The notes: generated by a model from the letters alone, not told the origin. 64,000 nucleotides of DNA from an uncultured Verrucomicrobiae bacterium (GCA_963706955.1 CAVPOC010000013.1:1-64000); one strand, 5' to 3'; positions 41,993-61,150 are shown, counted from the stretch's first letter. Numbers and translations: made by a program.

Positions 41993-43249
41993 CTATCTCG
42001 GGTCCGCGACGCGTCCAATAAAGAGGCAAGCTCCGCTTGGGCGATGCTGAATGGCAAAGAGGAATGGCCGGTCGACGCGAACCTCGACAGGTTTCGGTTT
42101 GTCCAGGTGGGCGGTGGCCCGCATCATGACAACGGCAGTCGCGGCGGCTGCTTCTGTTCCCTTCTCATCAATCTCGACGAAGGTTTTGTGAAAAACGTTG
42201 GAGATGTAGAGATAGTCATTCGCTCGCCGCGGCGCTATCCCGTTGAAGTTTGCGCTTCCTTGCGGGACGTCAAAGGCGCTTTCCATGCCAAGCGCTTCGA
42301 AGGTTTTTCTCAACGCGAAGAGAGGCGGCTCCAGCCTCCATTTGGGCAAATAAAGAAGAATTTCCTCAGGCTTCAGACGCGCGCATTCCGCCAGCAGATC
42401 CGGAGTCAATTTGCTTTCGAGTTTTGGGAGTCCCACCGCGGTGTCTGGCAAGAGCACGAGAAACTGGAGATCGCCACCTGTGTACGGAAGTGCGACGGCA
42501 ACAAACCCGTCATGCTTAGCGTAACCCAAGGCATCCTGGCGTCTCATCGTCGGCACATCCGCACTTGAACCGTCGGCAAAATGAAATGCGGCTGGGACAG
42601 TCTCGTTCTGTTTGAATTCCTCTTTCCAGGGAGCTTTGAGATAGACCGCATTGGCGAGCACCAGACGTGTGTCCTTGTTGAGCGCATTCGGTGGGATCAA
42701 ATCGCGGATTCGTTCCCTCGTCTGTTCGGCGATCCAGCTGTTAATGTGCTTGGTGGCGCCGGCAGAATCGCTGATGAAATCGAGGGCTTCGAGTGGCGAG
42801 TCCAACGTCTTCTTGAGCAGCTCGAGGTAGGCAGGTCGAAAATCGTATCCCCGTTGTCCGAATAGCCTGTTCGCAACCGTCAATGTAATCGGCTCGCTTG
42901 GCCCACCGGCTTTCTTAGACTCGGCGGCGATCTTTGCCGTCCGCTGAGCCATTTCATCGAGTTCGTCCTGGAGCCGGGCAAAGTCTCTCACGATATCCGG
43001 ATCGCTGGGCGGATAGTGAAGCACCCGGGCCATTTGCTGCCGGGTGTCCCCCTCAGCGCCGGCATAAGTCATCACAAGAGCGAGTTGAATCGAGTAGGGG
43101 GAAAAGGCTGTGTTCTCCTGGGGCGGCGCGGCGTGAGCAAGCAGATCGAGCGCCAGATTGTTCACCGCGCGAGCAGCGGTGGTCGACGGATCGACTGCCG
43201 AGAGGCAAGAAAGCGGCAGCAAGAGGGCGGCGACAATTTTGCTGTTCAT
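41993..43249 (-). CDS. Serpin (serine protease inhibitor family), secreted
   Basis: AFSPYSI, INSWIAEQT, LANAVYLKAPW, hinge EKGTEAAAAT, DRPFLFAI; signal peptide. Confidence 0.95.
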   Translation of the reverse strand: MNSKIVAALLLPLSCLSAVDPSTTAARAVNNLALDLLAHAAPPQENTAFSPYSIQLALVMTYAGAEGDTRQQMARVLHYPPSDPDIVRDFARLQDELDEMAQRTAKIAAESKKAGGPSEPITLTVANRLFGQRGYDFRPAYLELLKKTLDSPLEALDFISDSAGATKHINSWIAEQTRERIRDLIPPNALNKDTRLVLANAVYLKAPWKEEFKQNETVPAAFHFADGSSADVPTMRRQDALGYAKHDGFVAVALPYTGGDLQFLVLLPDTAVGLPKLESKLTPDLLAECARLKPEEILLYLPKWRLEPPLFALRKTFEALGMESAFDVPQGSANFNGIAPRRANDYLYISNVFHKTFVEIDEKGTEAAAATAVVMMRATAHLDKPKPVEVRVDRPFLFAIQHRPSGACLFIGRVADPR

Positions 43250-43250
43250 G

Positions 43251-45473
43251 CTAGATCTCCTCGCGCAGGAGCTTCTCAATGGTTTGGGACCAGGCGGCGT
43301 CGAGGTCGGTTAAGGACCACCCGAATGTCTTGCCATCGGCCGAAATCCTTAGCGAGTCGGACTTGGTAACTATCCCCAAACGATGGGCTGGCACGCCGCG
43401 CCACTCGAGGAGCGCCAGCGCTACCGATGCGTTTTGTTTCTTCACAGAAATAATGATCCGCGATTGCGTTTCATTGAAGATCAGCACGTCGGCACGCAAT
43501 CCGGTCTCGCCGAAATCCACCTCGGCTCCATGCGGCTCGGGTCCGCTCAAGCAAGATTCAACCAGGGCGATAGCTAATCCACCTTCAGAACAATCGTGCG
43601 CGCTCTCGACCAGGCCAATCTTTATCAAGGCGCGGACTGCCGCTTGAAGAGCTTTCTCGCGGGCAAAGTCCAGCCGAGGCGGAGGCCCCTCTTTTCGTCC
43701 ATGCACGATCTTAAGATAGTGCGACGCACCCAGCTCATTTCCCAGCTCACCAACAAGCAAAATCACATCCCCGGCTTGCTTGAAAAACTGAGTGGTGATG
43801 TCTTTCGAATTCTCGATCAGCCCCACCATGCCGACCGTTGGCGTAGGATCGATTGTGCCCGCAGGGCTCTCGTTGTAGAGGCTGACGTTTCCCCCCGTCA
43901 CAGGAATATTGAACTCTCGACAAGCATCGGCCATTCCTTCGACAGCTTCACGCAACTGCAGGAAATTTTCCGGTTTATAGGGGTTTCCGAAATTGAGGTT
44001 GTCGGTGATGGCCAGCGGGACCGCCCCTGAGCACGTCAAATTGCGCGCGGCTTCAGCAACAGCAATTTTCGCCCCTTCTCTCGGGTCCTGCCGGCAATAG
44101 AGGGCGTTGCAGTCCGAGGTTGCGGCGAGAACTTTGTCCGCCTCGCGCACGATGAAGACGGCCGCATCTGAACCTGGTCGCACCGCGCAACCGAGCCGCA
44201 CCATGTGGTCGTACTGTCGCCAGACCCAGCGCTTTGAAGCGATGCTCGGATGGGAAGAGAGTTGGATCAGCGAATCGCGGACGTCCACCTCTTGAACAGA
44301 GGTGAGATCAAGTGGCGGGGGAGGATGTCGTTCCGATGCTTCGCGACGATAAACGGGCGCTTCATCGGCGAGGGCGCGAGCAGGAATTTCAACGACAGTC
44401 TTTCCCTCTTCCTTGACTCGCATGAATCCGTCACCAGTGACGATGCCGATCTGCGCATAAGGCAAGTCCCACTTCTCGAAAATTTCTTTGACTCTGACTT
44501 CCTCACCTTTTTTCACGATGACCAGCATACGTTCCTGGGATTCGCTCAGAAGGATCTCATAGGGCGTCATCCCAGTTTCTCGCTTTGGCACGAGCGAGAG
44601 ATCGATTTCCACGCCGGTTCCGCCGCGACTTGCCGTCTCACAGGTCGAACATGTCAGACCGGCAGCACCCATGTCCTGGATGCCCGCGACGCAGCCGCTC
44701 GCGAGCAATTCAAGGCAGGCCTCGAGAAGTAACTTTTCGCGAAAGGGATCCCCGACCTGGACTGCTGGACGATCTTCTTTCGATTCCTCGGTCAAGTCGC
44801 GGGAGGCAAACGCAGCTCCAGCCAACCCATCGCGTCCGGTCTCCGCCCCAACATAAAACACGGGATTTCCGATTCCCGTGGCGGCGCCGCGGGCGATTTG
44901 GCCGTGGCGCAATATTCCAAGGCAAAAGACATTCACCAGCGGATTGCCGGCATACGATTCATCGAAATAGGTCTCGCCGCCAATCGTAGGGACCCCGATA
45001 CAGTTTCCGTAGTGGGCAATGCCCGCTACGACGCCCGCAAAAAGGTGACGGTGGGCGGGATCTGTGAGCGGACCGAACCGCAGCGAATTCAAACTAAAGA
45101 CCGGCCTTGCACCCATCGTAAAGATGTCGCGAATGATGCCGCCCACCCCCGTGGCGGCTCCCTGAAAGGGTTCAATGGCGCTGGGATGGTTGTGACTTTC
45201 CATTTTGAAAGCCACCGCCCAATCATCGCCGATATCGATCACCCCGGCGTTTTCCTCTCCGGCCCCCACCAGCACCCGATCGCCACGGGTGGGAAATTTT
45301 CGTAGTTCGAGCTTCGAATTCTTGTAGGAACAATGCTCGCTCCACATGACCGAAAACACGCCAAGCTCGGTGAAGTTCGGCTCCCGACCAAGAATTCCGC
45401 AGATCCGTTCATACTCCTCGGGGGTAAGACCGTGCTTGGCGATCACTTCAGGCGTAATGAGTGGATCTGGCAT
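43251..45473 (-). CDS. purL: Phosphoribosylformylglycinamidine synthase subunit PurL
   Basis: [39 protein letters not shown] at 45473. Confidence 0.97.
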
Positions 45474-45478
45474 TTTTT

Positions 45479-45646
45479 TAACCACAGAGGACACAGCTAA
45501 CCACAGAGAACACAGAGGAAAGTCATTAGAGAAATGCACTTCAGGCCGTCTCTGAGCTTAAGACATGTGATCACGGCCCGAGTGACCTGTTTATCAGCAA
45601 ACTCTGTGCCCTCTGTGTTCTCTGTGGTTGGTCTTTGTTGAGGCAT
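45479..45646 (-). mobile_element. Miniature, internally deleted derivative of the GxxExxY cassette (contains 49-aa ORF 45497..45646)
   Basis: Same inverted repeats as the full cassette. The [52 protein letters not shown] keeps three segments of the GxxExxY protein in frame. Confidence 0.75.
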
Positions 45647-45648
45647 TT

Positions 45649-45677
45649 TAACCACAGAGGGCACAGAGAACACAGAG
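45649..45677 (+). repeat. Left terminal repeat of the GxxExxY cassette, (cacagagNN)x3
   Basis: taaccacagagggcacagagaacacagag; inverted partner at 46055-46083. Confidence 0.85.
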
Positions 45678-45682
45678 GAAGG

Positions 45683-46087
45683 TCATAGAGAGATTCGCTT
45701 GAGACCATCTCTAAGCATTGGGACGTTGAAGTTGACAAGGAGGCCTGTCCGCAATCCGGTGAGCTTCAGATATGTGATCACTTGAGCATGGTGAATCGGA
45801 AGCAGTTGGTCGATGGCTTTGACTTCGATCAAAACCTTGTTGTCGACGATCAGATCAGCTCGGAACCCCATCTCGAACCGAATGTTGTGATACACGATGG
45901 GGATCTCCTTTTGAATTTCGACAACATGTCCTCGCGTGCTCAATTCATAGGCGAAACACCTTTCATAGACCGATTCGAGCAGGCCCGGGCCGAGTTCCTT
46001 GTGCACGCAAATCGCTGAGCCGATGATGGCTTCAGTGACCTCTTTATTAAGAAACTCTGTGCCCTCTGTGTTCTCTGTGGTTAGCAT
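45683..46087 (-). CDS. GxxExxY protein (PD-(D/E)XK nuclease superfamily)
   Basis: LGPGLLESVYE, FRADLIV...IEVKA, HHAQVITYLKLTG...GLLVNFN. ATG at 46087; inserted between purQ and purL. Confidence 0.95.
   Translation of the reverse strand: MLTTENTEGTEFLNKEVTEAIIGSAICVHKELGPGLLESVYERCFAYELSTRGHVVEIQKEIPIVYHNIRFEMGFRADLIVDNKVLIEVKAIDQLLPIHHAQVITYLKLTGLRTGLLVNFNVPMLRDGLKRISL
46055..46083 (-). repeat. Right terminal repeat of the GxxExxY cassette; overlaps the first codons (TTENTEGTE)
   Basis: ctctgtgccctctgtgttctctgtggtta. Confidence 0.85.
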
Positions 46088-46089
46088 CG

Positions 46090-46800
46090 TCAGGCGACTT
46101 GGCGCAGAGGGGAGGCGGGCCACTCGAGCATGCTTTGGAAAATGAGCAGGCCGTCGGTGCTACCTAAGAGCGGGTCGCAAGCTCGCTCCGGATGAGGCAT
46201 GAGGCCGCAGACGTTGCGGGCCTCGTTGCAAATTCCAGCGATATTGTCTTTCGAGCCGTTCGGGTTTGCCGCCTCGGTGGTGCGCCCGCGCGCATCGCAG
46301 TAACGGAACAGCACGCGACCTTCACGTTCGAGATCGTGGAGAATGGCATCTTCAGCAAAATAGCAGCCCTCGCCATGCGCAATGGGAAGACGCAGGACGG
46401 TTCCGTTCCATGTGGCATTCGTGAAAGGACTGTTATGTCGCTCGACACGGACATGTATATGCTCGCAAATGAAGTGAAGCCCCCGATTGCGAACCAAAGC
46501 GCCTGGCAAAAGCCCCGACTCGCACAAGATTTGGAAGCCGTTGCAAATGCCGATGACCATCCCGCCGTCGGCAGCAAAGCTTTTTACAGCGCGCATTATT
46601 GGCGAGAAGCGCGCAATAGCACCACAGCGCAGGTAGTCGCCGTAGGAAAATCCGCCCGGCAGCACAACCGCATCGAATCCGGCAAGCGAGGTCTCCTTGT
46701 GCCACACATAGTCCGCGTTGCCGCCGGGAATTGAGTTGAGCGCATGAATACAATCCTGGTCGCAATTAGACCCGGGGAATTGAAGGACTGCGAATTTCAC
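46090..46800 (-). CDS. purQ: Phosphoribosylformylglycinamidine synthase subunit PurQ
   Basis: [31 protein letters not shown]. Confidence 0.97.
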
Positions 46801-53314: not shown

Positions 53315-54297
53315 GCTTGGAACGATTAGTCCTTCAGACGCAGGAAAAATTTCCGCGCTATCGCTCGCGGGTTGAAATCATGCCTCTGGAAAAAGGGGGC
53401 TCCGAGCGGAAATTTTATCGCATCTGCGCAGGGGACGAGAGCCCGGTGATTCTGGTGAAATATTCCAGCCAGAAGGAGGAAAATCGCCACTATGTCGAGA
53501 TCGCGCGGTTTCTCGCGGCCTCGGGTGTTAGCGTGCCTGCGATCTATTTTCATGATGCGACCGAGGGGTTGATCTGGATGCAAGACCTGGGCGACGAAGA
53601 CTTATGGGCTTGGCGCGCTTCTCCCTGGCATGATCGGCGCTCCCTCTATGAATCCGCGCTCTTCCAGGCAAGCAGGCTGCATATCGCAGCCACTCGCGAT
53701 CTTCCCACCTCGGGTCTTCGGCTCGAACGCGAGTTCAGCGAGCAGCTCTATCTTTGGGAGCAGCAGTATTTTTTTGACAACTGTTTGCGCGCGCATTTTG
53801 GACTCGAGGAGTCCGCTGTGCACAGGTACTCGCAACTTGCCAGGATGCACGAGATCGCCGCGCGACTCGCCTCGCTTCCGCGCACGCTCGTTCACCGCGA
53901 TTTCCAATCACAGAATATTATTATTCAGGATGAACAAGCCTGGCTGATCGACTTTCAAGGCATGCGGCCGGGCCTGCCGCAGTACGATCTCGCTTCACTT
54001 CTCTACGATCCCTACGTCGACCTGACGAGTAGCGAGCGCAGCGAGCTCCTCAATTTCTACAAGCGCGTGGCTCTCTCCTCTGGCATGCAACTGACCAGCG
54101 ACTTCGACGAAGTATTTCACTTTTGCGCCCTCCAACGCCTCATGCAAGCCCTCGGCGCCTACGGGTTTCTTGGACTTCAAAAGGGCCGCCCTGATTTCCT
54201 CGCCCATATTCCGGCCGCTCGCCGCTCGCTCCGAGAAGTGGCTGCGCGCGTCGACGGCTTGGACGAGTTCGTAGCCTTGCTCGATTCCCTCCCATGA
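53311..54297 (+). CDS. Aminoglycoside phosphotransferase-family kinase (AmgK-like anomeric MurNAc/GlcNAc kinase)
   Basis: GGSERKFYR, QDLGD, HRDFQSQN, IDFQG, YDLASLL, QRLMQALGAYG. Confidence 0.85.
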   Translation: MSLERLVLQTQEKFPRYRSRVEIMPLEKGGSERKFYRICAGDESPVILVKYSSQKEENRHYVEIARFLAASGVSVPAIYFHDATEGLIWMQDLGDEDLWAWRASPWHDRRSLYESALFQASRLHIAATRDLPTSGLRLEREFSEQLYLWEQQYFFDNCLRAHFGLEESAVHRYSQLARMHEIAARLASLPRTLVHRDFQSQNIIIQDEQAWLIDFQGMRPGLPQYDLASLLYDPYVDLTSSERSELLNFYKRVALSSGMQLTSDFDEVFHFCALQRLMQALGAYGFLGLQKGRPDFLAHIPAARRSLREVAARVDGLDEFVALLDSLP

Positions 54298-56294
54298 AAA
54301 TTAGTGACCCCGGAACAGTCATAGTCGAAAACATCACCCCGCAACTCGACGGCGGACGCTATCCCATCAAACGCGCCGTTGGCCAGGACCTTGTTGTTGA
54401 GGCCGACATATTCAAGGAAGGACACGACGTGGTGTCTGCTCTTCTGAAGTGGCGTCCGGTCGGGGAGTCCACCTGGCTGGAAACCCCGATGGAAGCTCTC
54501 GTGAATGACCGTTGGCGCGGTGTGCTTACTGTGACGGCGCCGGGCCCTTGGGAAATGACGATTGAGGCGTGGGGCGACACTTTCAATTCCTGGCAAGAGG
54601 AGATCCATAAGAAGTTCGACGGAGGCATCCGCGACCTCCAGAGCGAATCGCTCGAGGGCGCGGCATTTATCAAGGAGGCGGCGACACGTGCGGCCGGAAC
54701 ACCCGATGCGGATTTGCTCTTAGCATTCGCGACGCGCCTAGAAACTGCAGGTCCCGAAGAAACGAACCAGGTCGCGGCTTCCGCGGAGCTCTCCGGCTTG
54801 ATGACGGTCTGGGCGGACCGCTCCCTTTCAACCGATTACCATCCTTTGTTGCCCATTTGGGTGGATGGCGAGCGCGCTGTCTTCGCCGCCTGGTATGAGT
54901 TCTTCCCGCGTTCGGCTGAGGGGAAACCGGATAGCGGATCGACGTTTCGCGATTGCCTTCCACGGATCGACGACGCCAAAGCAATGGGCTTCGACGTGAT
55001 CTATTTCCCGCCGATCCATCCCATCGGCGAGAGCAACCGAAAAGGTCGCAACAATTCCGTGACCTGCCAGCCGGGCGAGCCGGGCGTGCCGTACGCTATC
55101 GGAAATTACCGACAAGGGGTCAATGGCGGCGGCCACAAGGATGTCGCGCCGGAACTCGGCACGCTGGAAGACTTCGCGTGGCTGGTCGGCGAGACCAAGA
55201 AGCGAGGGCTGGAGATCGCCCTCGACTTTGCAATCAATTGCTCGCCCGATCACCCTTACGTGAAGGACCATCCAGAATGGTTCTTCAAACGCCCCGATGG
55301 GACCATCAAGTATGCTGAGAATCCACCCAAGAAATACCAGGACGTCTATCCGCTGAATTTTCATAATCCGAACTGGGAGGCGCTTTGGCGGGAGTTACAC
55401 GATGTGATTGCGTTTTGGTGCGACCTTGGCGTGCGCATTTTCCGGGTGGACAATCCTCACACCAAGCCGGTTTCGTTCTGGGAATGGCTCATTGCCGAGA
55501 TCCACGAGAAGTATCCGGATGCGCAGTTCCTCAGTGAGGCCTTTACACGCCCAAAGATGATGGCTGTGCTCGCGAAGGCGGGTTTTACTCAAAGCTATAC
55601 CTACTTCACCTGGCGAGATACGAAGTGGGAGCTCGAGACGTATCTCACCCAGTTGACGCAGACAGAGATGAAGGATTTTTTCCGGGCGAACTTCTTTGCG
55701 AATACCCCGGATATCCTGCCGCATTTTCTTCAGCAAGGCGGGCGTCCGCCGTTCCTCATCCGGGCCGTTCTCGCGGCGACGCTTTCTCCGGTCTATGGGA
55801 TCTACAGCGGGTTCGAGCTCTGCGAGCATGTCCCCGTTCCGGGCAAAGAAGAGTATTACGATTCAGAGAAGTATCAGTTCAAGGGACGCAATTGGGACGC
55901 TCCCGGCAACATCAAGGAGTATATCACCAAGCTGAATGCCATCCGGAACGAAAACCGCGCTTTTCACGAATACGCCAACCTTCGCTTTTATCACGCCGAG
56001 AACGACAACGTTCTCTTTTATAGCAAGACCACCGCGGCGCGCGATAACCTCATACTCTGTGCGGTCACCGTGGATCCTAACCACTCACAAACGGCCTTCG
56101 TTCACGTGCCCTTGGAAGATCTGGGTCTGGGCCATCACGAAACCTTCCAGGTCGAAGATCTCTTGACGGGGGAACGCTTCCTGTGGACCGGCGCGCGCAA
56201 CTTCGTCTCGCTAAATCCACACACCCGACCCGCCCACATTTTCCGAGTGCGCAAGTGGGCGGGACGTTCGAATGGACAGGATGTTTATCTATAA
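54294..56294 (+). CDS. glgE: Alpha-1,4-glucan:maltose-1-phosphate maltosyltransferase
   Basis: WYEFFPRS, YAENPPKKYQD, RVDNPHTKP, EAFTRP, SYTYFTWR, NTPDIL, SEKYQ. Confidence 0.95.
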   Translation: MKISDPGTVIVENITPQLDGGRYPIKRAVGQDLVVEADIFKEGHDVVSALLKWRPVGESTWLETPMEALVNDRWRGVLTVTAPGPWEMTIEAWGDTFNSWQEEIHKKFDGGIRDLQSESLEGAAFIKEAATRAAGTPDADLLLAFATRLETAGPEETNQVAASAELSGLMTVWADRSLSTDYHPLLPIWVDGERAVFAAWYEFFPRSAEGKPDSGSTFRDCLPRIDDAKAMGFDVIYFPPIHPIGESNRKGRNNSVTCQPGEPGVPYAIGNYRQGVNGGGHKDVAPELGTLEDFAWLVGETKKRGLEIALDFAINCSPDHPYVKDHPEWFFKRPDGTIKYAENPPKKYQDVYPLNFHNPNWEALWRELHDVIAFWCDLGVRIFRVDNPHTKPVSFWEWLIAEIHEKYPDAQFLSEAFTRPKMMAVLAKAGFTQSYTYFTWRDTKWELETYLTQLTQTEMKDFFRANFFANTPDILPHFLQQGGRPPFLIRAVLAATLSPVYGIYSGFELCEHVPVPGKEEYYDSEKYQFKGRNWDAPGNIKEYITKLNAIRNENRAFHEYANLRFYHAENDNVLFYSKTTAARDNLILCAVTVDPNHSQTAFVHVPLEDLGLGHHETFQVEDLLTGERFLWTGARNFVSLNPHTRPAHIFRVRKWAGRSNGQDVYL

Positions 56295-56986
56295 GCTTTT
56301 CGAGCCGTATAGATACTCGCGACTCCGAAGCAGAGAGATCTCGCACGGAACTCTGTAAAGCCGTTGGCTTGCATTAGCTCCTCCATCTTGCGCCCCCGCG
56401 GGAAGGACTCGATCGAGCTTCCCAGATATTCATAGGCTTCCTTGTTGCCGGTGATCACTGCGGCGAAGCGCGGCAGCAGCTTATGCAAATAGACGCGGTA
56501 GATAATTCTAAGTGGAGGAAACTCTGGCAGCGAAAAGTCCATGACCAGGAGAACTCCCCCGGGACGGAGCACGCGGGCCATTTCCTGCAATGCTTCATCC
56601 CAAGCCGCCATGTTGCGCAGCCCAAAAGCGACCGTCAGCGCATCGAATTTTCCATCCTGAAATGGTAACTGAAGTGCGTCCGCCTGCACGAGGGCTGGCA
56701 CTCGCTTTCTTCTTGCGATTTCGAGCATGGGCAGGCAGAAATCCGCCGCAACGACCAGCGAGTGCGGAGACGCCTTTCGCAGGGCCAAAGCAAGGTCTCC
56801 GCTTCCTGTCGCAAGATCGAGGATCCGGTGAGGTTTCTCGCCAGCGATGATGCGGGCAGCTCGCGCGCGCCACAGGAAATCGAATCCGCCGCTGAGCAGA
56901 TGATTGGCGAGATCATAGCGCGCGGCGATGGCGGCGAAGGTGCGGCGAACGAAGCTGGGGTTCTGTTGTGGAAGAGTCGTTTCCAT
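56285..56986 (-). CDS. ubiE: Ubiquinone/menaquinone biosynthesis C-methyltransferase
   Basis: IAARYDLANHLLSGG, LDLATGSGD, AFGLRN, AYEYL..SIESFP. Confidence 0.92.
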   Translation of the reverse strand: METTLPQQNPSFVRRTFAAIAARYDLANHLLSGGFDFLWRARAARIIAGEKPHRILDLATGSGDLALALRKASPHSLVVAADFCLPMLEIARRKRVPALVQADALQLPFQDGKFDALTVAFGLRNMAAWDEALQEMARVLRPGGVLLVMDFSLPEFPPLRIIYRVYLHKLLPRFAAVITGNKEAYEYLGSSIESFPRGRKMEELMQANGFTEFRARSLCFGVASIYTARKAYR

Positions 56987-57036
56987 GACGAAGTTGCCTC
57001 AGAATTCGGAAGGGCCAGAGGGCGAGATCGGAGCCG

Positions 57037-57118
57037 TGCTCACGAGAGGATTCGAACCTCCAAGGGTCTCCCCATGCGCTCCTGAGGCGCACGCGTCTGC
57101 CAGTTCCGCCACGTGAGC
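57037..57118 (-). tRNA. tRNA-Leu (CAG)
   Basis: Acceptor stem GCTCACG/CGTGAGC, D-loop TGGCGGAACTGGCAGAC, anticodon arm TGCGC-CTCAGGA-GCGCA, long variable arm, GGTTCGAATCC. Confidence 0.95.
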
Positions 57119-57224
57119 AGATTGAACGCACACAATCACTCTGCTGTCTCAGGCTGTAAATTGGAAAATGCAAATTTCCACTGGCTTTGACTTCCAGCCC
57201 GTGCGAAGAAAGGCCTCTTTACTA

Positions 57225-58455
57225 ATGAATAAAGCATCCTCTTTTGTGCTCACTTTGGCCGCTGCGGTGGCTCTTCTTGCCTGTAAGCCAGCCCCGCCGC
57301 CCGCGCCTGCTGAGCCTGCTGGGACGCCTACGCCAGCCGCGACACCGACGGCAACGCCGACACCCGCACCGACGGCAACGCCGACACCTGCGCCGACGGC
57401 AACGGCAACTCCTGCCGAGACACCGCCTTCGACGCCGCCGCCATCTTCCGCCTCGACGCCTGCAGAGCCAACGCCATCGCCAACGGCCACACCAGCGGGA
57501 GCCGATGGTTCGGCGAGTCTCGATCTCAAAGACCCGGTCGCCACCATCGATGGAGATAAGATTTCGAAAGCACAGCTTGACGAGGCCTTTGACAAAGCCG
57601 TCCAGATGACTGGGATCAAAGCTGCGGATCTTACGCCCGAGCAAAAGCTCGAAGGCTACCGCCAAATACTCGATGAGCTGATCACGGAAAAGCTAGTGAA
57701 CAAGGCCGCCGCGGGCATCACCGTGCCACCGGCCGACGTCGATGCACAGATTGCCAAAATCAAGGCCCAGTTTCCTTCCGATGAGGACTTCAGTAAACAG
57801 TTAGCGCAGGTTGGCCAAACTCCGGAGCAACTCACCGAAACGATTCAGGAAAATGTTGCAGCAACAGCGCTGGCTCGAAAGCCAGTTGGCAGGCAAGACC
57901 GAGGTCACGGAGGAGGAGGCGAAGAAGTTCTACGAGGAGAACAAGACAGAGTTCACCCAGCCGGAGACGGTCAAGGCCAGCCACATCCTTTTTCGTGTTA
58001 ACAAGGAAGATTCCGAGGATGTGTCCAATCAGAAGCTGAAAGCAGCTCAGGGGGCAGAGGCACGCGCCAAGAAAGGTGAGGACTTCACTGCTCTTGCCAA
58101 AGAGCTTTCCGAGGAGCCAGGTGCCAAGGAATCCGGTGGCGATCTCGGATTTTTTCCCAAAGATCGCATGGTCCCCGAATTCGCCGAAGTCGCCTTTAAC
58201 GAAAAGGTCGGCGAAATTAGCGATCCCGTGCGCACTCAGTTCGGCTGGCATGTCATCAAAGTGACGGAGAAGAAGCCCGCAGGGACGCTGCCATACGATG
58301 AAGTGAAAACGCAGCTCCTGACCTATCTTAAGTCGAAGAAGCAGGAAGAGGCCGCGCAGGAGGTTTTGAAGTCACTCCGTGACTCTGCCAAGATTGAGAA
58401 CACGCTTCCTCCGCCGGTGTCGTCTCCTTCCCCAAGCGCGCCTACCGGAGACTGA
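57225..58455 (+). CDS. Parvulin-type peptidylprolyl isomerase lipoprotein (PrsA/SurA-like), frameshift near 57850
   Basis: Lipobox LLAC, Pro/Thr linker, SurA-N-like region, then VKASHIL, GGDLGFF, MVPEF and FGWHVIK in ORF 57811..58455. Confidence 0.88.
57345..57416 (+). repeat. Three 24-bp coding tandem repeats (PTATPTPA) in the PPIase linker
   Basis: ccgacggcaacgccgacacccgca / ccgacggcaacgccgacacctgcg / ccgacggcaacggcaactcctgcc. Confidence 0.85.
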
Positions 58456-59429
58456 TGGCGCGTCCTGCAAGACAGAATGCAGGTGTCATCGGCTTGGGAA
58501 TTATCGGCAGCCGGGTGGCCGCGAACTTACGCAAGGCGGGCTATCAGACGTGGGTTTGGAACCGCACGCCGCGTCCGGAGCCAAATTTTCTCTCGTCCGC
58601 CGCAGAGGTTGCCGAGTCGGCCAGGGTGGTTCAGATCTTTGTCTCCGACGGTCCTGCTTTGATCGAAACGATCGAAGCGATGGCGCCGGCGCTGGGTTCG
58701 GAACATATTATTCTTAACCATGCGACCATCGCTCCTAAAGAGACCCTCGAGGCTGCACGTTTGGTCACTGCCCGGAACGCCAATTATCTGGACGCACCTT
58801 TCACTGGCAGCCGAGATGCCGCCGAAGCTGGACAAATCGTCTTCTACATTGGTGGTGAGATCGGTGTGCTGGAGAGAGTTCGACCTTATCTCGAGGTCAA
58901 TGCCAAGGCCATCCTCCAGATAGGCGAAGTGGGCCAGGCCGCGGCGATCAAGATCGCGACCAACCTGATGGCTGCCGTGGCGGTGGGTTCGTTCGCCGAA
59001 GCCATGTGCCTTCTCGCAAAGAGCGGCATCCCGCTCTACAAGCTTGGCGAAGCCCTCGAGCAGCACGCGCTTCACTCGCCGCTCGTCGATCTGAAAATGC
59101 CGCCAATGATCACCGCGGATTTCGAGCCACGCTTTTCGCTTCGCCACATGTTCAAAGACGTCCAAATCGCACTCTCGATGGCAGAGGAATTCGGGGTCGA
59201 ACTTCCCGAAACCGCTGCCTTCGCCGGCACGGCGATGGCCGGCATTCAAAAAGGCTGGGCCGATCTGGACTTTTCCAGCATCGCGCGGCACTACGGCTTT
59301 TCCCATGAGGATAACGTGCTTCCGGACACGGTTTTTGTCTCCGCAAAAGCTAAGGCCGGTGAGGATGGCATGGGCGCTGCGGAAAAAGAGAAGAAGAAGG
59401 GATTTCTCTTCTTTGGACGTCGCTCGTGA
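58455..59429 (+). CDS. NAD(P)-dependent oxidoreductase (3-hydroxyisobutyrate/6-PG dehydrogenase family)
   Basis: GVIGLGIIG, WNRT, YLDAPFTGS, KIATN, FSLRHMFKDV. Confidence 0.9.
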   Translation: MARPARQNAGVIGLGIIGSRVAANLRKAGYQTWVWNRTPRPEPNFLSSAAEVAESARVVQIFVSDGPALIETIEAMAPALGSEHIILNHATIAPKETLEAARLVTARNANYLDAPFTGSRDAAEAGQIVFYIGGEIGVLERVRPYLEVNAKAILQIGEVGQAAAIKIATNLMAAVAVGSFAEAMCLLAKSGIPLYKLGEALEQHALHSPLVDLKMPPMITADFEPRFSLRHMFKDVQIALSMAEEFGVELPETAAFAGTAMAGIQKGWADLDFSSIARHYGFSHEDNVLPDTVFVSAKAKAGEDGMGAAEKEKKKGFLFFGRRS

Positions 59430-60329
59430 ATGTCGTGCTGGAGGAGAAAAGAACAGAACCTTTTGAGACGGACTGTTTGCGCGCGCTCCGCCGCGAGGGC
59501 GGCTTTTTCGTGTTGGGTGAACGCGCGCGCGTGCGGGTCACCGGTAGCCGACCGGCTTCGTTACCTGAATGGCCAGCTTAGTAACGACCTTCGCCGCCTC
59601 GTGCCTGGCGAAGCAATGCGAGCCCTACTTCTCACTGCGAAAGGAAAACTCTGTTCAGACGTTTTCGTCTGGATCGATGGAGAATCGCTCATTGTCGAGG
59701 CGGACGTCTCGCTCGAAGAAGCTCTTCTCGCGCGGCTCGAGCGCTACGCTGTTGCGGACGACGTCGCCTTCGAGTCGCTGACGCCCGTCGCTGAGCGTTG
59801 CCATGTGTTTGGCTCGGTCTCCGCGGGGAGGGATGGATTGCAAATTCGCCGCCTGGGTGTCGAGGGGCTTGACGTGACATCGCCTCCGAACGATTTGCGG
59901 GAAGCGGGAGCCGACGAGGTTGAATTACTGCGGATCGAACGTGGGCTTCCGCGCTGGGGCAGCGAGCTTTCCGAGGACACGCTGCCTCAGGAAGTTGGCC
60001 TCGATCGAATCGCAGTTGATTTTAACAAAGGTTGCTACGTTGGACAGGAGGTCGTCTCGCGCATCCATAGCGTCGGACGAGTCAATCGCCATCTTTGCGG
60101 ATTTGTCGGGGACTTCGACCCTTCGCTTGCCGCAGCCGCCACTCTCGTGGATGCGGGTGGCCGGAAATCCGGACGCCTCACCAGCGCGAAGTTCCATCCT
60201 GAGTTGCGAAAGACCATCGCGCTCGGCTTTCTCCAAGGGCAGCCGGCCGAGTCGTCATTCGTGCTCCAAGATGAAAGTGGTACTTGCCTTGGCACGGCGG
60301 AACGTTCTCAATTTCCTCTTCTTCCCTAA
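59430..60329 (+). CDS. ygfZ: Folate-binding protein YgfZ/GcvT-like (5' region probably frameshifted)
   Basis: DRLRYLNGQLSND, LTAKGK, LRIERGLP, KGCYVGQE. Confidence 0.88.
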   Translation: MSCWRRKEQNLLRRTVCARSAARAAFSCWVNARACGSPVADRLRYLNGQLSNDLRRLVPGEAMRALLLTAKGKLCSDVFVWIDGESLIVEADVSLEEALLARLERYAVADDVAFESLTPVAERCHVFGSVSAGRDGLQIRRLGVEGLDVTSPPNDLREAGADEVELLRIERGLPRWGSELSEDTLPQEVGLDRIAVDFNKGCYVGQEVVSRIHSVGRVNRHLCGFVGDFDPSLAAAATLVDAGGRKSGRLTSAKFHPELRKTIALGFLQGQPAESSFVLQDESGTCLGTAERSQFPLLP

Positions 60330-60934
60330 TGAAAAGACTGTTTTCTGCGCTCGTCCTTGTCTTCGTAACTTTGTCCTGCGGCGTCGCCGCCACGGTTGGG
60401 CCGGAGGTGGCCGTCATGCAAATCAAGATCGGGAAGGAACGAGATTTGCAGCAAGTCGTCATCGGTCTCTATGACGACGCGGCGCCAGCGACTGTGGCAA
60501 ACTTCAAAGAGCTTTGTCGAAAACGCTTCTACAACGGCATGCGCTTTCACCGCGCCTTTCCCAGCACCCTGGTTCAAACCGGCGATCCGCAAAGTCGCCG
60601 TGGACCCGCAGATCGGTCCGGCACGGGTGGACCCGGCTTTACCATTCCCGCCGAACTCGGACGCAATCATGTTCGCGGGGCAGTGGCCATGGCGCGTCTG
60701 CCCGACAACATCAATCCATCAAAAGTTTCTAATGGAAGCCAATTCTATGTCTGCCTCACTTCGATGCCGAAGCTCGATGGCAAGTATACGGTTTTTGGCG
60801 AGGTCCTCGAGGGATTGGACGTGCTTGATTCCATCAGCAACCAGCCTACCGACAGCAACGATTTCCCATTGGCAAAAATCGTGATAAAATCTATCACCAT
60901 CCAGCCACGTTTCGCCGAAGCGCCGCCCCAATAG
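60329..60934 (+). CDS. Cyclophilin-type peptidylprolyl isomerase, secreted
   Basis: APATVANF, FYNGMRFHR, QTGDP, GAVAMAR, GSQFY, LDGKYTVFG. Confidence 0.93.
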   Translation: MKRLFSALVLVFVTLSCGVAATVGPEVAVMQIKIGKERDLQQVVIGLYDDAAPATVANFKELCRKRFYNGMRFHRAFPSTLVQTGDPQSRRGPADRSGTGGPGFTIPAELGRNHVRGAVAMARLPDNINPSKVSNGSQFYVCLTSMPKLDGKYTVFGEVLEGLDVLDSISNQPTDSNDFPLAKIVIKSITIQPRFAEAPPQ

Positions 60935-60966
60935 CCAAATGGCGTCCCCTGCGAAACCGAAGTGAC

Positions 60967-61049
60967 GGGTAGGTACCGAAGTGGCCAAACGGGGCGGACT
61001 GTAAATCCGCTGGCTTACGCCTTCAGTGGTTCGAATCCACTCCTGCCCA
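60967..61049 (+). tRNA. tRNA-Tyr (GTA)
   Basis: Acceptor stem GGGTAGG/CCTGCCC, anticodon arm GCGGA-CTGTAAA-TCCGC, long variable arm, GGTTCGAATCC. Confidence 0.95.
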
Positions 61050-61150
61050 TTACTCTGTAAAGCGCATAAATAAAGACTCTGCGGGCATTTCGCGCGTTTT
61101 TCTCTGCACTGCAAGAAGATGCACGGAAAAGCATCAAAATGGCTGTAATG

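Follow-up and report, generated by a model that had tools for sequence, protein, structure and literature searches.

Small nuclease cassettes of the GxxExxY family, bounded by inverted repeat arms, appear to have long resided just upstream of purL across this Verrucomicrobiae family. Here, we report that a 175-bp element (the mini) between an intact cassette and purL in an uncultured Verrucomicrobiae bacterium is, as read from alignments, a gutted relic of an older cassette allele adjoining an intact version. The favored reading, which we hold to be probable, is that a small selfish cassette has been resident before purL and that the mini is an earlier allele decayed in place.

The window is the whole stretch analyzed, 64,000 nucleotides of one contig (GCA_963706955.1, CAVPOC010000013.1:1-64000); G numbers denote genomes (G000 being that of the window), L numbers loci, g numbers genera, and C numbers contigs. 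Datasets holding the window sequence are soil and rhizosphere metagenomes, and the nearest named records of the nuclease gene are from Verrucomicrobiae/Terrimicrobiaceae. The cassette plan is ATG, left arm, GxxExxY nuclease gene, inverted right arm, and TTAA, and both the full copy and the mini are framed by inverted CACAGAG heptamer arrays with a 9-nt period. The features of the purQ-cassette-purL locus, in order of transcription, are as follows.

46090..46800, minus strand: purQ, host gene upstream (NCBIfam NF002957, E 1e-100); its stop codon lies 2 nt ahead of the cassette ATG
46055..46083, minus strand: full cassette, left arm; three CACAGAG heptamers, 9-nt period, within the coding 5' end (TTENTEGTE)
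45683..46087, minus strand: GxxExxY/PDDEXK_3 nuclease gene, intact, 134 aa (TIGR04256, E 4e-42; PF13366, E 2e-41; alignment; model pLDDT 92)
45648..45686, minus strand: full cassette, right arm; doubles as a 12-codon ORF running from an ATGA overlap to 1 nt short of the relic ATG
45642..45646, minus strand: ATGCC, a relic of the purL start that now serves the mini ORF as start codon; same arm-to-purL junction in G010 and G001
45630..45644, minus strand: decayed purQ last codon, stop, spacer, and cassette start, fused to the purL relic via GCC; aligns to the G016 left junction
45602..45629, minus strand: mini, left arm; 28/28 identical to the full-copy left arm
45575..45601, minus strand: mini, parent segment 1 (FADKQVTRA); a net 246 nt are deleted after it
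45554..45574, minus strand: mini, parent segment 2 (VITCLKL); 48 nt are deleted after it, where a GCTCA microhomology lies
45527..45553, minus strand: mini, parent segment 3 (RDGLKCISL); nearest allele L103, the shared Leu codon being counted in the 2/30 versus 7/30 comparison below
45476..45518, minus strand: mini, right arm; a 10-nt insertion, common to congener G016, creates a TAG stop
45497..45646, minus strand: mini ORF, 49 codons, ending 23 nt before purL; family match absent
43251..45473, minus strand: purL, host gene downstream (NCBIfam NF002290, 1,011 bits)

A serpin gene (PF00079, E 2e-99; window 41993-43279, minus strand) lies directly 3' of purL and overlaps its end.

The original prediction, that the seemingly intergenic DNA before purL holds inverted repeats and an in-frame remnant of the nuclease gene, held up well. 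The mini arms are 100% complementary over 20 nt (45499-45518 with 45610-45629), with additional pairing at 45480-45496 and 45502-45517, and the 49-codon ORF has the codon number and sequence claimed for it. The three parent segments were recovered by BLAST of the mini against the full copy as collinear pieces (45/49, 20/22, and 47/56 identical), and with the arms removed the 75-nt interior still matches at 63/75 positions, so that the alignment is significant without the repeats (score 66, versus maxima of 28 in 3,000 shuffles and 29 in 3,000 genome stretches). The net deletions of 246 and 48 nt are both multiples of 3 and take out G35-x-x-E38-x-x-Y41, D78, and E88-x-K90, the predicted loss of the GxxExxY and catalytic motifs. 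The longer deletion fits a GTGATC repeat of the G016 allele, and a split into 46 and 200 nt fits equally. The 49-aa peptide itself is probably without function.

Contigs of three studies, each covering part of the stretch and one perhaps from the source sample, match the full copy, the junction, and the mini (X6 record 29, 45600-46081, 4 differences; X5 record 21, 45467-45628, 0 differences; X1 record 2, 45520-45628, 0 differences), and misassembly was rejected on this basis. The exact tandem-junction pattern had 0 matches in metagenome contigs; arm joints from the contig search were short-sided matches with 88% likeness, probably from other organisms' elements, and were excluded. In RNA run X16 this stretch is present only as short scattered contigs, and the RNA rows contain 0.05 to 0.09 of the words.

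The ATGCC junction, which had been taken for a duplicated target site, does occur both at purL and at the start of the mini ORF, but the two occurrences are not identical (A4 at 45646-45649, A7 at 45473-45479), and the repeat is better explained as a relic purL start with the decayed remains of a purQ stop and a cassette start behind it. In G010 and G001 the arm meets purL at a junction that matches the right end of the full copy together with ATGCC, and the 12 nt after ATGCC align with the purQ stop, spacer, and cassette start of G016 (shuffle P 0.002; 0.036 without the shared GCC). Similar scraps lie between the two copies in G001 (purL head, ~20 nt; purQ tail, ~24 nt), G010 (purQ tail), and G013 (purL head), and a second tandem in G000 (C7) likewise duplicates its upstream flank. 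These purL-start and purQ-stop relics show, by alignment, that the tandem arose when the whole unit was doubled along with scraps from either host flank, the joint lying at a 3-nt microhomology (GCC).

Besides the tandem at purL, G000 has two mini tandem pairs, this C7 one (C7:108008-108395, duplicating ~35 nt of upstream flank) and another at C3:159618-160116. GTAG-tagged REP-like palindromes lie within the C2 element and separate the two members of the C3 pair. The mini left arm is preceded by 7 nt (window 45630-45637) that equal those before the left arm of the C10 element (G000:C10:51170-51180), a match that may reflect chance, ectopic conversion, or shared origin.

The purQ-purL junction was compared in 30 loci of relatives plus G016. 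Among the 16 congeneric genomes with the junction, which are related and not independent, six hold tandems (G000, G001, G010, G012, G013, and G014) with five different joints, one being common to G012 and G014; four hold a single decayed cassette (G004, G009, G011, and G016), three an arm pair with another, unrecognizable interior (G003, G008, and G018), two vestiges (G006 and G017), and one a 16-nt empty site (G002), which reads as precise loss between TA/TTAA ends. Metagenome contigs added a tandem of two different alleles (L099), a frameshifted single copy (L103), and one cut copy (L124). Beyond this genus, a cassette immediately precedes purL, whichever gene is upstream, in G044, G045, G049, and G056 and in 16/18 of the examined genomes of genus g4, which were picked after matches had been seen and are not a random sample; it is absent there in, e.g., G020, G042, G043, G024, and G078. 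In this comparison of loci, the mini is shown to sit at the ancestral purL-adjacent position, tandems to collapse to singles, and singles to erode or drop out. The proposal of repeated gain at one site is backed by this survey and by the tree comparisons below, and presence is patchy at one cognate site with empty alleles, as for homing elements.

Several other features of the site were observed. In genus g4 (L227-L246) the gene upstream of cassette-purL differs among close relatives (genes we take to be purQ, a gatA-like gene, and a gnd-like gene), and the cassette left end may be a rearrangement breakpoint there. Other repeat families occur at the purL-upstream site (L003, L009, L207, L208, L212, and L215), with AACTCTC arrays inside the arms in G018/G003 and TTCATAC/TTCATCC arrays in g29 and g31. 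In G020 (L016, L048) and G042 (L194), the purQ-purL site is empty, and a distant GxxExxY gene (36% identical) with different arms is found immediately upstream of purQ, an independent insertion into the same operon.

The mini had also been said to derive from an older, diverged cassette. Descent from a diverged, once functional cassette stands, but the mosaic is not clean, segments 1 and 2 being nearer the neighboring copy. Over 26 codons the mini differs from its neighbor by 8 synonymous and 8 nonsynonymous changes, an enrichment for synonymous ones (P 0.026), and, when the final 16 codons are split off post hoc, 7/9 of their differences are synonymous. The 3' segment has 2/30 differences from L103 versus 7/30 from the neighbor, and the first two segments have 6/42 from the neighbor versus 12/42 from L103 (Fisher P 0.046 for the contrast). 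G016 (purL dS 0.67) carries one decayed cassette with other deletions and the same 10-nt right-arm insertion as the mini. From these segment-wise differences and the G016 insertion, the 3' part is the old resident, and the 5' part may stem from the newer allele or owe its sequence to conversion by it; the two tandem copies are thereby shown, at the level of alignment, to descend at least in part from different alleles. L136, whose flanks are 97% identical, carries the full copy without the mini, and this copy runs out into the right flank of the mini, a state that fits either collapse between the two right arms or complete replacement; an X6 contig without the 10 nt at 45492 represents a similar allele. 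It belongs to a 50-kb stretch (G041:C3:8402-58864) that is 94 to 98% identical to window 10261-61050, on a 1.58-Mb contig titled Alphaproteobacteria; the contig matches the window over ~50 kb only, with other sampled parts unlike G000, and is probably a chimeric assembly. L136 was used solely as a near-conspecific allele.

Exchange of alleles was examined against host divergence. Between G000 and L136 the nuclease gene shows 0/95 synonymous differences versus 0.094 in 13 host genes, and 0/30 equal-size host blocks are without synonymous differences. For G012/G014 the cassette has 7/88 differences versus 87/366 in the host (Fisher P 0.0007). Sisters G013 and G018 (purL pS 0.15) hold different alleles, that of G018 being the allele of the more distant G003, and in genus g4 many host pairs at pS 0.15 to 0.18 carry cassettes at pS 0.30 to 0.73. 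The cassettes of three g4 genomes group with that of G049 from genus g26 (100/99), whereas purL keeps g4 together (100/100); g4 monophyly was rejected for the cassette (AU test, p 0.016) and the G049 grouping was rejected for purL (p 0.0012), with the tested groups named after sequences and trees had been inspected. This conflict between cassette and purL trees shows, so far as the phylogenies go, that alleles move between lineages at the fixed purL-upstream site, the lateral spread at a cognate site expected of homing, here for groups chosen after inspection. The right flank moves along with the G049-type allele; no clear left-flank co-conversion was seen in the G000/L136 comparison. In G044 both arms are altered together, with pairing kept. 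A search of G000 (92.5% complete) did not find ComEC.

The intact gene belongs to the GxxExxY family (143 bits versus a cutoff of 35 for TIGR04256; 141 versus 22 for PF13366), with GLLESVY as the family motif, the family-invariant G35, E38, Y41, D78, and K90 present, and D78, E88, and K90 conserved as in PD-(D/E)XK nucleases. The model (pLDDT 92) predicts with confidence a minimal PD-(D/E)XK fold, and the predicted fold is that of a nuclease and not of a transposase. The best structural matches are restriction-fold nucleases, all weak (Cas4 SSO0001, Foldseek E 0.005); Cas4 SSO0001 (Z 7.7, rmsd 4.3, 100 aligned) is tied with several others. No solved structure was matched by sequence, and all fold matches stayed below Z 8.

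Large deletions with coding anchors at the site are multiples of three in 9/10 cases (P 0.0025 to 0.023 for in-frame shares of 0.42 to 0.55, microhomology pairs in the parents being 37 to 55% in frame), a count that leaves out G012_b, G014_b, and G008 (arm-only anchors; net 220, 228, and 341 nt), G004 (3' end lost), and indels of <30 nt; without the two deletions of the window itself, the count is 7/8 (P 0.012 to 0.063). The right arm in most alleles here is a 9- to 12-codon ORF running from the ATGA overlap to a stop beside the purL start. The mini has lost its own ATG to mutation in G000 and G001, and a frame beginning at the relic purL ATG reaches to 23 and 27 nt from purL, respectively. 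The mini folds at z -4.8. A bridging ORF is open in 12/17 remnants (P 0.001 to 0.45 for all 17 under a deletion-simulation null, depending on parameters); a shuffle null (4.5 expected, P 7e-6) was discarded as too lenient, since remnants descend from an ORF, and a family-wide arm relay ORF was rejected (3/29 versus 2.0 expected). Remnant peptides have nothing in common beyond arm and parent residues and were therefore assigned no function. With modest support, the frame bias suggests selection for ribosome relay across a strong hairpin, and frame-keeping may possibly avoid polarity on purL.

Under the resident-cassette reading, the nuclease would cut at or near the arm hairpins and start recombination, through which an incoming allele would replace the resident or stack beside it, host recombination completing either outcome. 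Slippage between microhomologies within the loop of the hairpin would produce the deletions, and those that keep frame would be favored because ribosomes must be relayed from purQ over the hairpin to purL. We infer the role of the nuclease in allele turnover from these sequence patterns.

A passive history, in which an ordinary duplication occurred in one genome, the arms only promote slippage and recombination, general homologous recombination does the rest, and the nuclease is uninvolved in mobility, is in our judgment an unlikely but serious competitor. Tandem partners are near kin in G001 (14/135 differences) and G010 (8/113), as plain duplication predicts, and the left arm and first two segments of the mini are closest to its neighbor. 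In genus g1, overall cassette divergence is close to host divergence in most pairs, so much inheritance is vertical. Near-identical tracts of cassette length also occur elsewhere between G000 and L136 (2/120 comparison windows with ≤1 difference, at 54 to 61 kb), so ordinary recombination could explain this pair. What a passive history accommodates poorly is that the mini 3' end groups with L103 and G016 and not with the neighbor, that alleles cross a genus boundary which purL does not, that arms remain attached to the GxxExxY gene family in distant phyla, and that arm-bounded minis stand at sites where congeners have none. In the original MITE-like interpretation, the mini is nonautonomous, was mobilized in trans, and was inserted beside the full copy with a target-site duplication. 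G000 has 33 heptamer-array matches, most forming short arm-bounded elements, versus 0 in two 1.1-Mb Markov controls; a 266- to 270-nt deletion is common to at least six elements in three genomes (C3a, C3b, C4, C5, G007_C333, and L135); and the C3, C5, and C10 minis are absent from the orthologous spacers of 1, 8, and 6 congeners, respectively (both flanks readable), from which it follows that the cassette lineage also reaches new sites. The mini shares terminal inverted repeats with a gene-bearing element, and the 7 nt it has in common with the C10 element would also suit mobilization. Against this, both of its deletion junctions occur once in G000, even at up to 4 mismatches, and its interior was not found away from purL in 18 congeners (search E 1e-8). 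Its arm insertion is common to the same site in G016, and the candidate target-site duplication is the purL/purQ relic. A TA/TTAA repeat at the cassette ends is indistinguishable from the arm ends. As for a cognate transposase, the partner gene is a PD-(D/E)XK nuclease, and a search limited to the Y1 family found none at these arms. We regard the MITE reading of the mini as improbable, and the resident cassette decayed in place as the better account.

The strong hairpin ending a few nucleotides before the purL start could alternatively mark a domesticated regulator, a leader-peptide or attenuator-like device in which hairpin and short ORF tune purL translation. Arms are better kept than interiors and open frames are common in remnants, both in favor of such a device, but interiors and peptides are unrelated between alleles, L136 and G002 manage without the mini, and Rfam gave no family at gathering score and only generic hairpin (miRNA) matches; we give regulation little credence, about as little as mobilization in trans and if anything a shade more. 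The arms could also pair in mRNA so that the insert is cut out or bypassed and hence neutral, removal of intervening sequences from 23S rRNA being a precedent, and the predicted fold does pair the full-copy left arm with the mini right arm (23 nt perfect), looping out both copies. Here, the frame bias of the deletions suggests that the insert is translated and not removed, and the left arm is coding; this is the least probable of the readings weighed and can be held only very doubtfully beside a resident cassette.

Other observations concern related elements and the allele comparison. A hybrid mini (G000:C8:472540-472700) combines a left arm of the CACAGAG type with a right arm of the ATCTG type and so resembles a recombinant between the two arm families. 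A second intact GxxExxY gene in G000 (C3:723865-724206; 39% identical) has CACAGAT-type arms, its ORF reading through the right arm, and is flanked by genes presumed from their N termini to be metK and ahcY; G007 carries this type of cassette at the same site (L044). Four-helix-bundle genes (TIGR02436) occur at G000:C8:515812-516129 and C8:1074808-1075126, one of them split in two frames. At window 54000-61050, divergence from the L136 contig is ~1% versus 3% elsewhere, with tracts up to 851 nt having ≤1 difference.

The mini is a fossil only, and its worth lies in recording the process. The GxxExxY family is large and of unknown function, with matches in 31/41 related genomes and as many as 13 in one genome. 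The locus offers it a job that can be tested and, in the arm hairpin, a defined candidate substrate, together with natural full, mini, tandem, and empty alleles. More tentatively, GxxExxY cassettes may be undescribed chromosomal selfish elements that home onto sites occupied by their relatives, the minimal PD-(D/E)XK nuclease cutting arm hairpins and the new allele replacing the old or stacking beside it; they would persist in essential operons by being translationally transparent, with a start that follows the upstream stop, arms in codon phase, and a stop that precedes the downstream start. If the nuclease drives turnover, it would be a PD-(D/E)XK counterpart of the Ssn-NTS systems, living on bacterial chromosomes in a homing-like cycle, and might also be a structure-specific nuclease of very small size. 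From the frame bias one would learn how elements of this kind persist in operons that are coupled and essential.

Correia elements are bacterial MITEs, internally deleted derivatives with retained ends. The mini resembles them in being internally deleted with its ends kept, and these ends are compatible with a TA or TTAA direct repeat (G002 empty site); unlike them, it is unique and site-bound, and a transposase fold is absent. REPtrons/TIRtrons and REPINs likewise combine an enzyme gene between inverted repeats with dispersed gene-less repeat dimers, but their enzyme, in the passages of the source consulted, is an HUH tyrosine transposase (PMC3733652), which the cassette does not encode; the four Y1_Tnp matches in G000 lie away from the listed CACAGAG arrays. 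The GxxExxY/PDDEXK_3 family (TIGR04256/PF13366), of which the intact gene is a member, is described in passages of PMC3424549 as of unknown function and subject to multiple transfers, and those passages mention neither arms nor minis nor turnover at a site. The literature covered, which was mostly outside subscription journals and limited to main texts, yielded no account of this family as having arms or minis, and GxxExxY appeared there as passing annotation only.

Ssn-NTS/SRM are GIY-YIG single-strand nuclease systems linked to control of recombination with incoming DNA, in which SsnA cuts a cognate single-stranded hairpin and modulates transformation (passages of PMC11893778). As in those passages (PMC11893778), the cassette has a small single-domain nuclease gene and cognate inverted repeats that also occur gene-less genome-wide. 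It differs in that its nuclease is PD-(D/E)XK and not GIY-YIG (the only Pfam match is PF13366, with no GIY-YIG domain of the cd10448 type), its arms are 9-nt-period heptamer arrays with the left arm coding, it sits in operon junctions, and arm cleavage is putative. The cassette is not a MITE, a REPtron/TIRtron, or an Ssn system, each assignment failing on a defining feature. Free-standing phage homing endonucleases are, in the part of PMC2988022 consulted, coupled between conserved genes and cycle through degeneration, and cleavage by SegB yields tandem repeats via microhomology (PMC13096335, in part). The cassette is like these "intronless homing" genes in having a nuclease gene between conserved genes, apparently translationally coupled, with gain, decay, and loss at one site (compare PMC2988022, same part). 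In contrast to them, it is chromosomal, has inverted arms at its ends, exchanges mainly with sites that are already occupied, and also colonizes new sites as minis, and the G000/L136 pair lacks clear left-flank co-conversion. A cassette with same-site turnover is apparently undescribed; what is new is the same-site allele turnover, tandem stacking, and frame bias. In its anatomy the cassette comes closest to Ssn-NTS, and in its history to a free-standing homing gene.
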